From Planctomycetota bacterium (GTDB lineage: Bacteria > Planctomycetota > PLA2 > JAEUHO01), in the NCBI GenBank assembly GCA_965223505.1, contig CBDCWP010000044.1:128001-192000 (forward strand): a stretch of DNA of 64,000 bases. Direction: 5' to 3'. The translations under genes were made by a program, and so were the position numbers. Below are positions 25,531 to 50,203 of this stretch, one piece after another (position 1 is the stretch's first letter; every line of letters begins with the position of its first letter). Below the pieces are notes generated by a model. It was given only the letters and a program-made list of their open reading frames with translations. It did no database searches and was not told where the DNA came from.

Positions 25531-27108
25531 TCAGATCTGGTCGGGCGGAAGCGACAGGAGGCCGTCGACGGCCTTCTGGACGAATTGGGAGCCGGCGTTC
25601 GCGGCGATCTCGGCCAGCGCGTCCCGTTTCGAGCGGGACGGCCGGTAGGGCCGGGGGCTGATCATCGCGTCGTAGGCCTCGGCGACGCCGATGATGCCGG
25701 CGCCGAGCGGGATCTCGTCGCCGGAGAGGCCGTCGGGGTAGCCGCCGCCGTCGGGCCGCTCGCGGTGATGCCGCACGAATGCCGCGGCCTCGCCGAACGG
25801 GGCCAGGATCCGGGCGCCGACCACCGGATGCGACTGGACGACTTCGCGCTCGGCCGCCGTGAGCGGGCCGCTGCGCGACAGCACGTGATCGGGGATGCCC
25901 ACCTCGCCGACGTCGTGCAGGCGGGCGGCCGTGCGAATGACCGACCGCAGCCGGGGCGACAGCTCGAGCCGCTGCGCGATCCGATCGGCGATCCGCGCCA
26001 CGCGGTCGGAGTGACCGGGGTAGAAGCCGCCGCGGCCTTCCAGCGTGTCGACGATGCCCGCGGCGACGCGCAGCGCATTCGCTTCGGCCGCCTTGCGGTT
26101 GAGCTCCGACTCGATCGCCGCGCCGAGCGTTTGCGGCACGAGCGACAACAGGTATTCGTCGCCGGCGGCGTCGCAGGAATCCGACGCCGGACGCAGGATC
26201 GTGAGGCCGCCCATCGGCCGACCGGCGACGTCCACGGCCGCGGCCAACCCCTCCATCGGGGCGCCGAACCCGAGGACGAGGTCGCGCAGCACGCCGTTGG
26301 AACGGTTGCGCGCGCGCTGGAGCAGGTCCGGGCCCATGGTCGAGAGCACGCGGTCCGGCAGCGCCCCCGACTTGTGCTCGGCCACGTGGATGCCTTCGTT
26401 CAGATCGATTTCGATGCGCGTCAAGACGCCGCCGAACCGGCGCGACAGGATGCCGGCCGTCGTCTGCAGCACACGTTCGAGGTCGCGGTTGCGCGAGAGC
26501 AGATGCGACAGCTCGCGCAGGAACTGGAGATCACGCACGCGGCGTTCGAGATCCCGGCGGGACAGGCGCAGGTCTTCCTGCGCGCGCTCGAGCTCCTGCT
26601 CGGTCTGCCGGTGCCGGCGCCGCAGCGAGTCGGCCTCTTCACGCACGCGGTCGACCGCGTCCTTCTCGGTGCGCGCGATGCGCCGGGCGGTGAGCACGCG
26701 GCCCACGACGCTGCGCAGGTCCTCGAGGCCGAACGGCTTGGTGAGGTAGTCGTCGGCGCCGTAGCGCAGCGCCTGGACGGCCGTCTCGGTGGACGAGAAC
26801 GCGGTGATCAGGATGCTGCCGAGATCGGGGCGGATCTGCTTCGCCGACCGGATCAGATCGAGCCCGTTCATGCGCGGCATCTTGAGGTCGGTCAGCAGGA
26901 TGCTGACGTCCTGCTCGCGGATGTCCGCCAGCGCGGCGCGTCCGTCGGGGCGGACCGTGACGCGGTACCCTTCCCGGCGCAGCGCGGTCGAGACGAGCTC
27001 GCGGATCTGGGGTTCGTCGTCGACCACCAGGACGTGCGGGCCCGCGTCTTCACCACCCGGCCGGGGCGGGTTCGCAGGGGTTGCCTCGGCTTCGTCGTTC
27101 GGCCGCAT
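25531..27108 (-). CDS. Response regulator with HD-GYP phosphodiesterase domain
   Basis: REC (VLVVDDE, LTDLKMP), GHSDRV, LHDVG, HHRERPDGGGYPDG, YDAMISPRPYR. Confidence 0.9.
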   Translation of the reverse strand: MRPNDEAEATPANPPRPGGEDAGPHVLVVDDEPQIRELVSTALRREGYRVTVRPDGRAALADIREQDVSILLTDLKMPRMNGLDLIRSAKQIRPDLGSILITAFSSTETAVQALRYGADDYLTKPFGLEDLRSVVGRVLTARRIARTEKDAVDRVREEADSLRRRHRQTEQELERAQEDLRLSRRDLERRVRDLQFLRELSHLLSRNRDLERVLQTTAGILSRRFGGVLTRIEIDLNEGIHVAEHKSGALPDRVLSTMGPDLLQRARNRSNGVLRDLVLGFGAPMEGLAAAVDVAGRPMGGLTILRPASDSCDAAGDEYLLSLVPQTLGAAIESELNRKAAEANALRVAAGIVDTLEGRGGFYPGHSDRVARIADRIAQRLELSPRLRSVIRTAARLHDVGEVGIPDHVLSRSGPLTAAEREVVQSHPVVGARILAPFGEAAAFVRHHRERPDGGGYPDGLSGDEIPLGAGIIGVAEAYDAMISPRPYRPSRSKRDALAEIAANAGSQFVQKAVDGLLSLPPDQI

Positions 27109-27290
27109 ACCTCGCTGGATCGGCTCGGATCCTGTAGGACTTCGGCCTCTTTTGCCGCCTGGAATGGGGGCCAAAGCACCGCGGGAACGGACGATGGGCC
27201 CACGCCGGCGCGATTGGACCGTCCGGTCGGACGATCGGGCCGTTATAGGATGGTGGAGGCTTTGTTCCGGGCGCGGCTGGAGTTTCGTAG

Positions 27291-28151
27291 ATGCGCAAGA
27301 ATGTCCTGTTGATGAGCGTCCTGGCGCTCGGAATGGTCCTGACCCTGAGTCCCGGGCTCGCCTGGGGGTGAGGCTGAGGCGCCGGCGGCGGAGGGGGCGG
27401 TCGCTCCCCGTCCATCGGACCCTCGCCCGTCGGGCCGGGCGGTAGCCCGACGACACCCGGTGGATCCCCCTCGGGGCGCGGACGCAGCGTCGGCGCGGCG
27501 CCGCGGCTGACCCACTTCAAGTGGGACGTCGTCGAGATCGGCCCCATGCGCGCGGTCACCGGCGAAGAGGACGAAGAAGCCATCACGCCCGAGAAGCACC
27601 TGCGCAAGGTGCTCGGCTTCGACAAGGCCAGCCGCTACGGCGACAAGCGCCCGACGCTCGTCTACTTCCACTGGCCCCACGAGGACGGCAAGGAAGGCAA
27701 GATCTCCGAGAAGACGTGCCGGATCCTCGACGACGAGGAAGCCGCGCGCTGGTCGCTGTTGTTCCGTTGCGTGCAGATCGACATGGGCACCTCCAAGGAG
27801 GAGTTCACCGAGCTGCTCGGCGCGAAGGACAAGCCGTCGTTCGCCATGATGGACGCCGAGGCCAACATCGTCTTCGAGTTCCCCGCCCACAAGAGCGCGC
27901 GCAAGGTCTCGCAGTCGCTCGAGCAGGGACTGAAGAAGTTCCCCGCGTACTACAAGAAGGTGAAGGCGGACCTGAAGCAGCAGACCAAGTGGATGGCGGA
28001 AGCCAAGAAGCTGCAGAAGGCGAAGAAGCACAAGGAAGCGCTCACCCTCATCGACAAGGTGCGCTTCTCGAACCTGCGGGTCGGCGACGAGTTCGACAAG
28101 GCGCAGGACGTCGGCCGCACGCTCGCCGCGAAGATCTCGCGCCAGAGCTAG
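27291..28151 (+). CDS. Candidate secreted selenoprotein: signal peptide, G-U-G-U-G, Gly/Pro/Ser linker, degenerate thioredoxin-like domain
   Basis: GGAG + ATG 27291 gives MRKNVLLMSVLALGMVLTLSPGLAWG, then TGA(27369)-GGC-TGA(27375). The frame stays open into ORF 27546..28151. A GGTC-loop hairpin follows. Confidence 0.7.
27387..27412 (+). promoter_or_regulatory. Candidate SECIS hairpin
   Basis: ggcg-(ga)-gggggc GGTC gctccc-cgtc; loop begins 21 nt after the second TGA and 27 nt after the first. Confidence 0.6.
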
Positions 28152-30867: not shown

Positions 30868-33045
30868 CTAGAACTCAGCCCCGAAAGCAACGACGATCTG
30901 CCGTCCGGGCTCGTTCTGCCCCGACCCGTGAATGCGGTAGTTCTCGTCGAACAGGTTCTCGACCCCCAGCGTCACGAACCGCCCCTCTCGAAGCAAGTAG
31001 CCGGCGCGGACGTTGAAGACGCTCCACGACGGCGTTCCCCCCGGAGGGATCCGGCGCGAGTCCGTCTCGTCGCGGAACGAGAGCTTGTCCGCCTTCGCCG
31101 AGTACAGCCACTCCGCCTGGCCCCACAACCGCGAAGTCGGACGCCCGTAGCGAACGGCCAGCGTGCTCGCGAACGGCATGTTGCGGCTGAGCGGGCGCTT
31201 CACGAGATTGCCGGCGGTGTCGAGCTGATCGACCTCGCTGTCCATCCACGTCGCGTTGGCGAACGCCATCCAACAGCAGTGGAATCGCCACGCGACCTCT
31301 GCCTCGAAGCCCCATGCGTACCCGTCGCCGATGTTGTCCTTGCGCACCTCCGGAACGCCCATGATCGACGCGCCGGTGGGGGAGCGAATGATCGCGTCGT
31401 CGAGCACCGTGTACCAGAGGGCCGTGTAGCCGCTGATCGCCGGGTAGTCCCACTTCACGCCGGCTTCGAACGACAGGTACTTCTCCGACGAGAGGCCCGG
31501 CGCCGGCGTCTCCACGACGCTCGTCGAGTCCAGCGCCGTCAGGTCGTGCAACGTCGGCGCACGGAACGCCTGGGACACCCCGCCGAAGACGTTCACCCGA
31601 CGGTTGATGTGATAGATCGCCCGCAGGCTCGCGACGAAGTCGGTCCAATCGTTCGAGACCGAGATGATGTTGCCCGGTGTTGCCGGGTCGTTGCCCGCCA
31701 CCGCCGGATCGTCGACGCGGTCCGCCGACGCTACGGCGTGGGTCAGGCGCCCGCCCAGGAAGACGTCGAGGAAGCCGAAGCTCATCTGGTCCTGCAGGTA
31801 GACGCCCAGCAGGTCGTACGTGCCGTCATCGCCGAGCGGCCCCTGGACGTGCGAGAGCGTCGGAACCCCGGCCACCAAGTCGTCCCGGAACGTTCGGACC
31901 TCGTCGTGATAGAACTCCGCGCCGTACGTGAGCCGGCCGAAGCGCGTCGGGCTCTCGAGCTGGACTTGGACGCCGTACTGATCGACCTCGAAACCGCTCA
32001 GATCGCGCCGGTCGCCCGTGCGTTCCCGGTCGCGTTCCTCCGCCTGCCGGTGCCAGCTGACGGCGATGTGACCGCGGGAGATCGGCCGGCAACACGCACC
32101 GCCGTCGAACGAGAGTCGCGCGTAGGCGAGGTCGCGCTCCTGATCGAAGTCCCGCTCGAGCTCCGATCCGACGGCCGTGCCCGCGAAGGGCACACTGAAG
32201 ACCGTGCGCTCCGTGCGCGGCGCGTCGAACTGGCGCACCCGCTGGTACGCGAAGGTCAACTCCCACGGCCGGGACAGCCGAATGTCGACGCGTGCATCCA
32301 TTGCCCAGTCGTCGATGTCTCCGGTCTCGGGCTGCCGGCCGGCCCCGCTGGTGATGTCGCCGAAGTGCTTGTACGTGACGCCCGCGGCCCAGCCGATGTT
32401 GTCGAGATTGCCTTCGACCTGCGAGCGGACCGCGACGGCGTTCTCGGCGGACGCGTACCGCGAGTAGACGGCGCCGCCGACGTGCAGGCCGCGGCGGAAC
32501 GAGGTGCGCCGCCACGGGATCACGTTCACCGTGCCGCCGACGGCGTCACTGCCGTACAACACGGAGTGGGGACCTCGTACGACCTCGAGGTCGGCGATCG
32601 AGTAGGGGTCGATCGTGCTCCAGTACTGATTCGGGCCGGCTCGGAACGCCGAGTTGTTGAGTCGGATGCCGTCGATGAGCATCAAGTTTTGGTAGGCGGT
32701 GAACCCGCGGATGAACGGTGAGCTCTGGTGGGGCGCGGTCTTCTGGACCATGACGCCCGGCAGCGCCTTGAGGGCATCGGGTAGGGAGCGCGGGGCGCGG
32801 CGTCGCAGGATCTCGTCCTGATCCAGGACGGTGACGGCGGCGGGGGTGTCGAAGACGCGCTCCGCGCGACGAAGCGTCGTCGTGCCGTATGCGACACCTG
32901 TGCCGTGGATCCGGGGCGCCACGACCTCGATGGGGGGCAGCGACTCGAGCGGCGGCGGCTCCGGCGCGTCCGGTTCGTCTTCGGCAAAGGCGCCGGACGC
33001 CGTCGCAGCGAGCCCCAGCACCACAGCGAACGCGAACCGCAACAC
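30868..33045 (-). CDS. TonB-dependent outer membrane receptor
   Basis: GGGAGG + GTG; signal peptide; plug motifs PGV, PFIRGF, IDGIRLN, EVVRGPHSVLYGSDAVGG; ENLFDENY; terminal Phe. Confidence 0.92.
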   Translation of the reverse strand: MLRFAFAVVLGLAATASGAFAEDEPDAPEPPPLESLPPIEVVAPRIHGTGVAYGTTTLRRAERVFDTPAAVTVLDQDEILRRRAPRSLPDALKALPGVMVQKTAPHQSSPFIRGFTAYQNLMLIDGIRLNNSAFRAGPNQYWSTIDPYSIADLEVVRGPHSVLYGSDAVGGTVNVIPWRRTSFRRGLHVGGAVYSRYASAENAVAVRSQVEGNLDNIGWAAGVTYKHFGDITSGAGRQPETGDIDDWAMDARVDIRLSRPWELTFAYQRVRQFDAPRTERTVFSVPFAGTAVGSELERDFDQERDLAYARLSFDGGACCRPISRGHIAVSWHRQAEERDRERTGDRRDLSGFEVDQYGVQVQLESPTRFGRLTYGAEFYHDEVRTFRDDLVAGVPTLSHVQGPLGDDGTYDLLGVYLQDQMSFGFLDVFLGGRLTHAVASADRVDDPAVAGNDPATPGNIISVSNDWTDFVASLRAIYHINRRVNVFGGVSQAFRAPTLHDLTALDSTSVVETPAPGLSSEKYLSFEAGVKWDYPAISGYTALWYTVLDDAIIRSPTGASIMGVPEVRKDNIGDGYAWGFEAEVAWRFHCCWMAFANATWMDSEVDQLDTAGNLVKRPLSRNMPFASTLAVRYGRPTSRLWGQAEWLYSAKADKLSFRDETDSRRIPPGGTPSWSVFNVRAGYLLREGRFVTLGVENLFDENYRIHGSGQNEPGRQIVVAFGAEF

Positions 33046-33148
33046 GGAGCCCTCCCACGCCTTCCCGTGAGGAACGACGATGGTGCCAGGGGGTTCGGCC
33101 AAAACAACGCGGAAAGCGACCGTATGCTGTCCACGGAGGCGCACTCGC

Positions 33149-33328
33149 ATGAACGACGAATACCGGGTCGAGCTCAAACCTCGGCAGTGGGCCTATCTCG
33201 AGGAGATGGCCGAGAAGCACGGGTTGCCGGACGTGTCGAAGGCGCTGCGTTGCCTGGTGAATTTCGCGGTGGAAGAGCCCGACCGCGAAGGCGACATCTT
33301 CCAGGAGATCCGCTGCAGCGACTGCTAG
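33149..33328 (+). CDS. Small hypothetical protein (ribbon-helix-helix-like, C-terminal CxxC)
   Basis: GGAGG + ATG; MNDEYRVELKPRQWAYLEEMAEKHGLPDVSKALRCLVNFA...IRCSDC*. Confidence 0.65.
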   Translation: MNDEYRVELKPRQWAYLEEMAEKHGLPDVSKALRCLVNFAVEEPDREGDIFQEIRCSDC

Positions 33329-33453: not shown

Positions 33454-34548
33454 CTACTTGCCGCCACCCATCCCGTCGTCGTCACCGCCGTCGTCGTCTT
33501 CGCCGTCATCCTCGTCGTCGTCGTCCTCGTCTTCTTCTTCGTCCTCGCCGCCCTTCTCGAGCTGCGCGGCGACGCCGTCGACGTAGGCCTGGGCCTGCGG
33601 ATTGTTCTTGTAGAGATCGTCCTGCTTGACGCGCTCGATCATCGCCTTGGCGTCGTCGATGCGCTCGCCCTTGGCAAGCCACTGCGCAACCGCCACGCCG
33701 ACACCGACGAACATACGGCCCGAGAGGTGCTTGCTGGCCATGAGCGCCTCGTGGATCTTCGCGAATTCTGCGTCCGTGGGCGGACGCTGTTCCTTCGGGA
33801 AGAGCGCCTTGAGCTTCTCTTCTTCCTCGACACGCAGGCGACGCTCACGCTCCGCCGCGACCTTCTCCTTCAAGCCCAACGAGCCGTCCGGATCCGCCTT
33901 GTCGGCGGCATCGAGAACCCAGTCGAACGCCGGGTAGCCCAGCAGGTTGTTGTCGGCGAGCACAGGGAAGGCGGCCTTGAGCGCCTCGAGGTCCTTGTGC
34001 TCCGTGTCCGCGATCAGCTTCTTGACCGCGGCGCCGCCCTCCTGCAGCTCGTCGAGATGCTTGAGGTAGGCCTCGGGGCCGCCCGCCTTGTAGCCGGTGC
34101 GCCCGTAGGGCGTGCCGTCGGCGGTCGTGACCATGATGGTCGGGTAGCCGGCGCAGCTGTATTCCTTGAACAAGCGGTCGCGAAGCTCGGGGTCGACGAC
34201 CGCCTTCTTGAGCTCTTCGCTGTTCGGTTTGTCCATGAACACGAAGACGAACTTCTTCGTCGCCGCATCCACGAACTCCTTGTGCATGAACACCTCTTTG
34301 TCGAGGCGAATGCACCAACCGCACCAGTCGCTGCCGGTGAAGTTGATCACGAGATCCTTGTTCTCGGCCTTCGCCTGGGCGGTGGCCTTGGTGAAGTCCA
34401 TGACCCAGGGAAGGTGGGCCTCTTCGGTCTCGGCTTCGCCCTCTTCTTCCTCGGCGAAAGCCAGGCTGCCGGTGGTGACGGGCAGCGCCAGCGCGGCGAG
34501 CAGCCCGAAGAGCACGGCCCAGCGTCCGCGCAGAAGGTGATGCGTCAT
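33454..34548 (-). CDS. Secreted thioredoxin-family protein with acidic tail
   Basis: Signal peptide; FTGSDWCGWC, GYPT cis-Pro motif, D/E-rich C-terminus. Confidence 0.88.
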   Translation of the reverse strand: MTHHLLRGRWAVLFGLLAALALPVTTGSLAFAEEEEGEAETEEAHLPWVMDFTKATAQAKAENKDLVINFTGSDWCGWCIRLDKEVFMHKEFVDAATKKFVFVFMDKPNSEELKKAVVDPELRDRLFKEYSCAGYPTIMVTTADGTPYGRTGYKAGGPEAYLKHLDELQEGGAAVKKLIADTEHKDLEALKAAFPVLADNNLLGYPAFDWVLDAADKADPDGSLGLKEKVAAERERRLRVEEEEKLKALFPKEQRPPTDAEFAKIHEALMASKHLSGRMFVGVGVAVAQWLAKGERIDDAKAMIERVKQDDLYKNNPQAQAYVDGVAAQLEKGGEDEEEDEDDDDEDDGEDDDGGDDDGMGGGK

Positions 34549-34731
34549 GATTGCTCCTTGGATGTGAATGCGGCTCCCCGAGCCAATCGAAGGACGCCGG
34601 GGGGTTGGCCGATGTTTCCCTGCTCTCGCGGGGCCGCGAGGGGGCAGGGGCCTCGGTCCTTTTCCGCTGAAGCCCACGATATCCTCGGACCGGCCAACGG
34701 ACGAAACGCGCTTCGAAGAATCAGCGCGCCC

Positions 34732-49114: not shown

Positions 49115-50203
49115 ATGCGCATCGCCGCGACCCTTTCTCTCGCAGCCGCCCTCGCCTTCCTGCCGGGAAGCGTGACGGCCGACGAGGAGCACCGCATCGA
49201 CAACATGTCGATGGGCACCTACTGGTACGGCGCCAAGATCGAAAAGGAGGACCTCGTCGGAACGGTGGTGCTGCTCGAGATCTGGGGGTCGTGAGTAGGC
49301 TGCAAGGCGATCACGCCTCACTTGGTCAGTTTGGCCAAGCGTCTCGAAGACCGGCCCTTCCACCTCATCGCGTCCCACTGTCAGAACAACCCGAAGTCGG
49401 AGGTCGTGGCGTACATCAAGAAGCAAGGCGTCGCCGCTGACGCGCCGAACTTCACGGTCACGAGCCAGGCGCGGCACCCCGACGTCCAGGGCAACGGCCA
49501 CGTGCCGTACTACATCGTGTTCGACCACCGCGGGAAGCTGGTCCATCACCACATGTGCGGCGCCTACCACGGCGGGGACGGGCTCAAGATGATCGAGTGG
49601 GTCGATCAACTGCTCGAGGACGCGCCGGACCTGTACCTCGGCGAAGAGCCCTTCGAGCACGTCCCCGACCTCGCGGAGCGCATCGCGTTCAAGAAGGGCT
49701 TCGCGAAGGCCGTCGCCGAGGTGGAAGCCGGACTCGAGGACGAGAGCGTGGATGCCGGCAAGAAACAGGAGCTGCAGCGGCTCGCGGACGCCGTTCGCGC
49801 GTACTACGTCGCCGGCGAGAAGCGCGCGGACCGCGTTGCGGCGAGCAAGCCCAATCAGCTCGTGGCGCTGCTCAAGGAACAACGCAAGGAGCTCAAGGGC
49901 ACGAAGCTCGGCGCGAAGCTCGACGAGAAGATCGCCGAGGCGTCGAAGTCCAAGCACCTCAAGGCCGCGATCGCCGTGCAGAAGAAGTTGGACAAGATCC
50001 TGCGCGGGCTCGAGAAGCGCAAGCCGTGCAAGACGTGCAAGCGCGCGGGGCACGAGGGCGTCAATCTCGACTGCCCCGCTTGCCGCAAGGACAACGCGAG
50101 CGCGATCGAGAAGGCGGTCGAGAAGCTCGAGAAGCTCGCCGAGGAAGCGGACGGCCTGCCCATCGCGCAGGCCGTTCAGGACGCGCTTGCCGGCGTGAAG
50201 TAG
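49115..50203 (+). CDS. Secreted TlpA/redoxin-like selenoprotein (UVGC) with C-terminal CxxC..CxxC
   Basis: ORFs 49091..49294 and 49322..50203 are in frame; read-through gives GTVVLLEIWGS-U-VGC-KAITPHL. Later HVPYYIVFDHRGK and CKTC...CPAC. Confidence 0.85.
49305..49339 (+). promoter_or_regulatory. Candidate SECIS hairpin(s)
   Basis: cttggtca-GTT-tggccaag (49321-49339, loop 34 nt after TGA); alternative aggcg-atca-cgcct (49305-49318). Confidence 0.45.

Follow-up and report, generated by a model that had tools for sequence, protein, structure and literature searches.

A candidate selenoprotein family of uncultured Planctomycetota with a predicted selenocysteine pair directly behind the signal peptide

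The window analyzed here is a stretch of 64,000 nucleotides (nt) from a Planctomycetota bacterium (GTDB lineage Bacteria; Planctomycetota; PLA2; JAEUHO01; GenBank assembly GCA_965223505.1, contig CBDCWP010000044.1, positions 128,001 to 192,000 of the forward strand). It carries a gene (27291..28151, + strand) whose reading frame holds two TGA codons right behind a predicted signal peptide. The question raised by this locus is whether the gene codes for an exported protein with two selenocysteine (Sec, U) residues or for a shorter protein which begins downstream of both TGAs, and what the Sec pair might do if it exists. We have very little doubt that the gene codes for a real selenoprotein, and we consider it highly likely that both UGAs are read as Sec.

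The coding sequence starts with the ATG at 27291, which is directly abutted by an in-frame TAG (27288-27290). A Shine-Dalgarno-like GGAG (27279..27282, read directly from the sequence) is located 8 nt ahead of the start codon. Residues 1-26 (MRKNVLLMSVLALGMVLTLSPGLAWG, 27291..27368) form the predicted signal peptide, the end of which (A-W-G) was assigned by the -3/-1 rule only. The first TGA (27369..27371, Sec27) is separated by one GGC codon from the second (27375..27377, Sec29), and the frame is open thereafter up to the TAG at 28149-28151, which results in 286 residues including both Sec. A Gly/Pro/Ser arm predicted to be disordered (residues 30-70, 27378..27500) connects the pair to the body of the protein; in the alignment its length and composition are conserved and its sequence is variable. 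Because the frame has no ATG, GTG, or TTG from 27378 to 27546, a mechanically called open reading frame (ORF) begins at the internal ATG of 27546..27548 (Met86), which is not the true start, and yields the annotated form of 201 residues. The start codon at 27291 with its ribosome-binding site and signal peptide, the TGA-GGC-TGA run followed by an open linker frame, and the start of the ORF track at 27546 had already been described in an earlier note made from the sequence of the window, and all of these are reproduced here. The same note had proposed that the TGAs be checked in reads, in homologs, and against the Sec machinery of the genome.

Conservation in relatives proved to be the most informative of these checks. 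A six-frame search reading through stops detected relatives in 20 of 61 related genomes, and a profile search covered all 29 genomes of the same taxonomic family. The latter revealed 17 full-length orthologs in 16 genomes, with one more copy cut by a contig end. Every one of the 17 has an in-frame TGA at the site (two TGAs in 11 genes, one in 6), and the layout of signal peptide, TGA, and open frame recurs in all of them. The alignment of these orthologs extends from residue 1-5 through to the end, and the N-terminus is hydrophobic in 20 of 20 translated relatives. Three types of motif were found, all directly behind the signal peptide: A[WYFA]G-UGUG in ten genes from ten species, which represent at least five genera; [GD]-CUG in six genes, five of which read exactly G-C-U-G; and UENUG (UxxU) in one paralog. 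In the codon column of the first site, TGA occurs 11 times, TGC 4 times, and TGT twice (Cys codons in 6/17 genes), and the second site is TGA in 17/17, so that TGA or Cys occupies both positions in each aligned ortholog. The base of the UGU/CU clade is not resolved in a tree of 23 sequences, and we leave the ancestral form undecided.

It might be argued that the 201-residue ORF from 27546 is the real gene and codes for a cytoplasmic protein, and that the upstream region is an accident of high G+C content or a pseudogene remnant, or that TGA stands for Gly or Trp. Long spurious ORFs are common at 67% G+C, and a word-indexed search retrieved 48 database proteins (195-254 residues, all of them unnamed or "hypothetical"), each of which begins at an internal Met downstream of the TGAs. 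However, Met86 is not conserved: its counterpart in the other 16 aligned genes is Ile, Leu, Phe, Gln, or Pro, and never Met. What is conserved upstream of Met86 is the signal peptide and the region from the linker to the first strand, with the stretch PR[LM]TxFxW. The TGAs are fixed in all 17 genes. The real stop codon is a TGA in 6/20 listed relatives, which shows that the group has kept TGA as a termination codon, and the Sec machinery is complete (see below). The conservation data already disfavor the short ORF at the level of sequence, and we regard it as extremely improbable that it is the genuine gene. Judged by their sequences, the 48 short entries look like truncated selenoproteins. 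The TGA arrangement is not due to chance, as seen from its recurrence in orthologs, the lack of conservation of Met86, and the rarity of the associated hairpin.

The stretch was compared with contigs of public DNA runs. Those of runs X1 and X2 come from one sample; X1 spans the whole stretch and X2 covers 27100-27552. Runs X3 and X4 miss the TGAs. The X1 and X2 contigs show zero differences from the stretch, and both TGAs thus stand unchanged. As X1 may be the source of the window itself, this agreement adds little, and the true control against sequencing error is the conservation in other species. An apparent contig joint at 27401-27857 was dismissed as a chance match: it involves a 23-kb contig which matches over 22-24 nt per side with mismatches and represents G-rich DNA of another organism.

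The genome (G000) encodes the machinery for Sec incorporation: selA (507 bits), selB (336 bits), selD (338 bits), and tRNA-Sec (69 bits) all score above the curated cut-offs. ARAGORN detected no tRNA within the window. The selD gene carries an in-frame TGA of its own (..AGAGG-U-AAKV..). It directly follows selA (C8:36851-39232, +), and the selenophosphate synthetase is itself a selenoprotein. In the family, selA was found in 27 of 29 genomes, the two misses being a genome which is 57% complete and genome G004, in which the gene is present.

How would two UGAs only two codons apart be decoded? A core hairpin resembling a selenocysteine insertion sequence (SECIS), GGGGC[GGUC]GCUCC, is located at 27394..27407 (+; loop at 27399-27402), with a 5-bp consensus stem according to RNAalifold, which reports a compensatory change in 2 of 5 pairs. 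Of the 12 distinct rows in an anchored alignment, 11-12 preserve the five inner pairs, and three of these pairs have changes on both sides. Covarying stems include GAGGC/GCCTC, CGGGC/GCCCG, and TCGGC/GCCGG. The covariation score is 0.318 versus 0.180 +/- 0.037 for shuffled alignments, and none of 500 shuffles reaches this score. Codon usage at the loop likewise speaks for selection on the RNA. The Gly codon in the loop is GGT in 14/17 genes versus 67/507 (13.2%) of the Gly codons across these genes, the Arg following it is encoded by CGC in 16/16 cases, and the motif GGCGGTCGC shares one codon phase in 14/17 genes. Among the relatives, L032 retains the GGTC hairpin in another codon phase, and in L033 and L034 the stem is 6 bp long and its loop contains GGGU. 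Hairpins with a 5-bp stem (G-U allowed) and a GGTC loop occur 564 times on both strands of the 5.15-Mb genome, which corresponds to about 5e-4 expected per given 10-nt window. A possible extended lower stem (27386..27417, +) is present only in the minimum-free-energy fold of the sequence itself; it is not supported across the orthologs, where two proposed outer pairs fail. Rfam returned no family at gathering score for the whole window and only chance-level matches near the hairpin at E values up to 10.

The position of the loop was compared between genes. The earlier note had placed it 21 and 27 nt downstream of the TGAs, which is exact; counted from the U of UGA to the first G of the loop, as is done from here on, the offsets are 24 nt for the second and 30 nt for the first TGA. 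In the UGU genes the loop is 24 or 21 nt from the last and 30 or 27 nt from the first TGA, in the UENU paralog 21 and 30 nt, and in the CU genes 20-24 nt from the sole TGA. According to the bSECISearch work, the stem-loop of a bacterial SECIS reportedly lies some 16-37 nt past the UGA and contains G/U in its apical loop; the loop offset of E. coli fdhF is 21. Genes of the same genome with a single candidate Sec codon show offsets of 30 nt (C30:300375), 24 nt (C24:62874), and 25 nt (C30:72520). Since each offset occurs singly in the same genome, it is simplest to assume one hairpin for both UGAs. A second hairpin at an equal distance would not fit into the sequence. We thus consider it likely that one SECIS serves both UGAs, as the earlier note had suggested; a single conserved hairpin is available for this.

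Alternatively, only the second UGA might be decoded efficiently as Sec, while the first would in most cases terminate translation or be decoded by a near-cognate tRNA and would act as a selenium-dependent throttle of expression. The first UGA is 27-30 nt from the loop as compared with 20-24 nt for the sole UGA of the CU-type genes, and E. coli is reported to be strict about the spacing between UGA and SECIS. Against this, the first position alternates with Cys codons in the orthologs, which is the signature of a Sec site, the single-Sec gene at C30:300375 uses the 30-nt offset with a similar hairpin, and the UGU form has been retained in species from several genera. A throttle is thus a very unlikely explanation, and we continue with two Sec residues.

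These residues would be located close to the N-terminus of the exported protein. Sec27 may even be residue 1 of the mature protein, as suggested by the -3/-1 rule. The same rule fails to place Sec at residue 1 in several CU-type orthologs, the more probable cleavage site of which is a few residues closer to the N-terminus. Bacterial lipoproteins have the lipobox consensus [LVI][ASTVI][GAS]C, which upon inspection by eye is not matched by A-W-G-U, A-F-G-U, E-G-G-C, D-A-G-C, R-A-D-C, or F-A-Q-C.

The structure of the protein was modeled with AlphaFold2 from a 57-row alignment (mean predicted local distance difference test (pLDDT) 84.7). Residues 1-70 are predicted to be disordered (pLDDT 45-56) and residues 71-286 have a pLDDT >90. 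In the model, a classical thioredoxin core is combined with three long helices, and a short strand is present at 79-81. The thioredoxin-fold domain (residues 72-215, 27504..27935, +) was assigned from AlphaFold2, Foldseek, and VIA-align; it has core strands at 122-127, 159-164, 183-187, and 193-198 and helices at 133-146, 170-175, and 203-214, in the beta-alpha-beta-alpha-beta-beta-alpha order expected for a thioredoxin fold. VIA-align matches it with Z 9-12 to some 50 thioredoxin-fold chains. The Lys-rich C-terminal tail (residues 218-285, 27942..28145, +) is predicted with pLDDT 97-99 to form three helices (218-243, 247-258, and 266-285). At the place of the CxxC active site, residues 127-132 read H-W-P-H-E-D (F-H-W-P-H-[ED] in the family), and neither Cys nor Sec occurs there in any of the 17 genes. 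The two His residues at this place, His127 (27669-27671) and His130 (27678-27680), are invariant, as are Cys143 and Pro182 (the cis-Pro position), and Cys160 is nearly always kept. According to the model, the body is a DsbD-gamma-type thioredoxin fold without CxxC, followed by a helical tail. The thioredoxin-like domain lacking CxxC, which the earlier note had recognized in the sequence, is thus borne out by the model and by its VIA-align Z of 12.2 to DsbD-gamma. The family, which it had failed to recognize, has no curated counterpart either. Pfam gave no match, and no thioredoxin model (including Thioredoxin_7, Thioredoxin_2, and DsbH) even at E values up to 1. NCBIfam gave only chance-level matches to unrelated models (E 0.064 and 0.23), with MbdU, TsoB, and NF041115 unmatched.

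A scan of the genome itself for a signal peptide followed by TGA revealed three more genes, which form a sister subfamily and all have shorter arms. Two of them are a tandem pair (C30:300375 and C30:301379, -; L075:875-1657 and L075:1906-2667) coding for 261 and 254 residues. In these, AEAG is followed by U-C, and a short arm leads to a thioredoxin-like body, in which CDE(T/D)ExCEG occupies the position of the active site; a coiled-coil tail follows. C30:300375 has a GGAGC[GGTC]GCTCC hairpin 30 nt past its TGA. The third (C34:241238, +; L076:252-1013) has ..KTVG-C-U-G.. behind the signal peptide. When L038-L040, which are from other families, are added to the three sister genes, this set can be aligned with the main family at a probability of 99.5% (E 2e-23), the Sec pair included. 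The arm of L038 (G053:C51), a distant relative belonging to another family of the phylum, is rich in Cys at about residues 20-50, ahead of the Gly run. A pattern scan with one genome per species returned 16 loci, all from metagenome-assembled genomes of Planctomycetota. Among 1.84 billion representative proteins, a profile search retrieved only 94 matches, 11 of which were inspected. Three of these (P0062, P0070, and P0120), more distant relatives, are full-length and have a single Cys, the counterpart of the second site, plus a Gly run right behind the signal peptide; in two others the signal peptide is present and an adjacent Cys or Sec is absent. Taken together, the sequences argue for a genuine, mis-annotated, clade-restricted selenoprotein family with an unusually placed Sec pair.

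What might the pair be good for? The genomic context gives no clue: no conserved neighbor gene was found at the gene's own locus and at 13 other loci extending up to 17 kb (14 in total), and clustering by synteny over these loci returned the gene itself and its antisense shadow ORFs only. As no neighbor is conserved, the function must be read from the protein itself. The following mechanism is proposed, in which the gene model and the decoding are strongly supported and the role of the pair is inferred. Translation would start at ATG 27291 and both UGAs, six nucleotides apart, would be decoded as selenocysteine, with the in-frame GGUC-loop hairpin acting as the SelB-binding SECIS for both, the second UGA being at the usual distance (24 nt) and the first six nucleotides further away (30 nt). 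Cleavage by signal peptidase would leave Sec-Gly-Sec at the new N-terminus or a few residues from it. About 40 disordered residues would tether the pair to the DsbD-gamma-like body, which has lost its CxxC and carries the helical tail. The Sec/Sec pair (Cys/Sec in sister genes) would be the reactive center, cycling between selenolate and diselenide or selenenylsulfide and shuttling redox equivalents in the periplasm, and the body, devoid of CxxC, would be a module for docking or for binding a partner.

A redox arm is favored for three reasons. The G-C-U-G of five orthologs matches the motif of thioredoxin reductase. The spacing of the pair varies (UC, CU, UGU, and UxxU) and some relatives have a single Cys, a pattern expected of a nucleophile whose resolving partner is optional rather than of a fixed chelate. 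Finally, the fold relatives of the body are periplasmic electron carriers. An oxidase role would be as possible as a reductase role because diselenides catalyze thiol oxidation, as has reportedly been seen with selenoglutathione. We tentatively assign a redox function to the arm, at slightly less than even odds. A more specific version, in which the N-terminal Sec-Gly-Sec forms a diselenide on a 40-residue leash and does the chemistry of the missing CxxC, with the UC, CU, and UxxU paralogs as a redox-tuned toolkit, is a speculative extension that we hold with some reserve.

The Sec pair could instead be a ligand for soft metals or metalloids such as Cu(I), Hg(II), As(III), or Cd, and the protein a periplasmic metallochaperone or detoxifying binder. 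The arm would then capture the ion, which His127, His130, and the acidic residues at the CxxC place might receive from it or help to bind. Both His residues are invariant in 17/17 orthologs with Glu/Asp next to them, and the arm of the distant relative L038 (CxxCxC...C...CU) resembles a metal-binding peptide. CC and CU motifs in new selenoproteins have been argued to be heavy-metal sites (Haft and Gwadz, 10.1101/2022.07.06.499078), and a table in a 2026 review contains "metal-binding" double selenoproteins with UxxU and CU motifs. However, both His residues are not retained in the sister subfamily, the two members of the pair are spaced variably, a single Cys is all that some relatives have, and the 14 loci share no neighboring gene for a metal transporter or of the mer, cop, or ars type. 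We consider metal binding less likely than the redox arm, of which it is nevertheless the main and a serious rival.

Several points weigh against a two-Sec exported selenoprotein with a redox arm. None of the RNA runs listed carries the stretch. Two SelB deliveries within two codons would have to be made from one hairpin, which is short (5 bp) and whose fold energy is no better than that of shuffled sequences (z = 1.58); controls with slid positions still pair in 39-69% of the cells because the region is G-rich. The lack of a conserved neighbor gene deprives the proposed function of support from context. The His residues and acidic residues at the CxxC place and the Cys-rich arm of L038 fit metal binding at least equally well. 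The genome, 92% complete, already encodes disulfide systems: the VKOR and DsbA domains are fused in one open frame of 481 codons (C31:87556-88830, -), and two DsbD/CcdA-type membrane proteins (DsbD_TM) are present; DsbB was not found. These systems do not single out a redox pathway for the arm, nor do they discriminate among the proposed functions. With all of this taken into account, a two-Sec exported selenoprotein with a redox arm is, as a whole, the best explanation, and we consider it reasonably likely.

Other genes were noticed in the window and the genome. The copy at 27291-28151 is a solitary gene, with a divergent HD-GYP response regulator on one side and a convergent gene on the other. 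A 407-residue Thioredoxin_7/DsbH-like protein (33454-34677, -) and a TonB-dependent receptor (30868-33177, -) are encoded 3-6 kb downstream; these neighbors are not conserved in other genomes. At 49115-50203 (+), with a TGA at 49292, is a candidate exported thioredoxin-like selenoprotein (362 residues when read through) with the canonical site ..EIWGS-U-VGC.. and a long helical tail. Elsewhere in the genome, candidates include an exported selenoprotein ..HKDF-U-GRC.. (C30:72520, -; L077:796-1713) with a GGTC-type hairpin 25 nt past the TGA, a deiodinase- or peroxiredoxin-like protein ..FGSYT-U-QPF.. (C24:62874, -) with such a hairpin 24 nt past the TGA, and another exported selenoprotein ..FITGPAT-U-PGK.. 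(C31:81108, -; L078:66-1268). At C30:22557 (-), a TGA lies between open stretches of 403 and 1171 codons with a GGTC-type hairpin 21 nt downstream, which represents either one large selenoprotein or two genes. Kinship of the present family with the genes at 49115-50200 and 33454-34677 of the window and at C30:72520 was rejected (hhalign probability 0.7-2.1%, no relationship). At least eight candidate genes in this one genome suggest that the clade keeps a set of thioredoxin-fold selenoproteins in its periplasm.

The family would be a new one from uncultured Planctomycetota which every gene caller has truncated, leaving 48 database entries devoid of the signal peptide and the Sec pair. A reactive Sec-x-Sec carried by the terminal arm of an exported protein rather than by its fold would be a new placement. 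If the more specific, diselenide-forming version of the redox arm is true, the protein is a new type of extracytoplasmic selenium catalyst, the synthesis of which takes two deliveries by SelB, two codons apart, with a single hairpin. With UGAs 21-24 and 27-30 nt from one loop, the family would also offer a natural test of the reach of a single bacterial SECIS, which is relevant to the engineering of proteins with multiple Sec.

Two Sec residues in one bacterial protein are not new as such. The 2026 review describes double selenoproteins with UxxU (Prx-like and "mercuric reductase-like"), CU (MbdU), and UxxxxU (TsoB). These resemble the present family in having two UGAs within a few codons of one gene. 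They differ in that none of those listed has U-x-U, and an arm following a signal peptide is reported for none of them. The terms "UxU", "UGU", "Planctomycet", and "signal peptide" are all absent from the main text of that review, and the table of a 2022 review, with 87 prokaryotic families, lists neither U-x-U nor such an architecture. The families of Haft and Tolstoy (2025) have NCBIfam models (NF accessions in the 2026 table), none of which is matched by the protein. The family appears to be undescribed, being absent from the published family lists that were compared.

In structure, the closest known proteins are DsbD-gamma (1vrs_D, the top VIA-align match, found independently of Foldseek; 112 residues superposed with a root mean square deviation (rmsd) of 2.4), DsbH (2ju5, Z 11.1), and an exported domain related to cytochrome c biogenesis (3f9u_B, Z 11.3). 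The DsbD-gamma, Thioredoxin_7, and DsbH carriers are exported as well and keep the Pro of the cis-Pro loop; here, in contrast, CxxC is replaced by H-W-P-H-[ED] and the reactive pair would be located outside the fold. YbbN-type proteins were the first Foldseek matches (E 3e-4 to 1.5e-3), with YbbN/CnoX (3qou and 3qdn; E 3e-4 and 6e-4) on top, and were followed by many thioredoxins. YbbN/CnoX and the present protein share a thioredoxin fold devoid of CxxC which is followed by a helical tail (tetratricopeptide repeats in YbbN), but the overall superposition is weak (TM score 0.28-0.30, rmsd 9-10; VIA-align Z 9.6 and rmsd 8.7 for 3qdn). E. coli YbbN is cytoplasmic and is not known to have a Sec arm.

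With respect to the Sec pair, two eukaryotic proteins come closest. Vertebrate selenoprotein P, which transports selenium, has a Sec-rich C-terminus with UxU motifs and a SECIS in the 3'-untranslated region; it shares the Sec-x-Sec spacing and the extracellular location, while it is eukaryotic and unrelated in sequence and fold. Mammalian thioredoxin reductase carries a C-terminal Gly-Cys-Sec-Gly arm. In the present family, the arm is N-terminal behind a signal peptide and is attached to a thioredoxin fold rather than to a flavoenzyme, the Sec-Gly-Sec of the gene in the window would form a diselenide rather than a selenenylsulfide, and the sequences are unrelated; what both have in common is a vicinal chalcogen pair placed between Gly residues on a flexible terminal arm.

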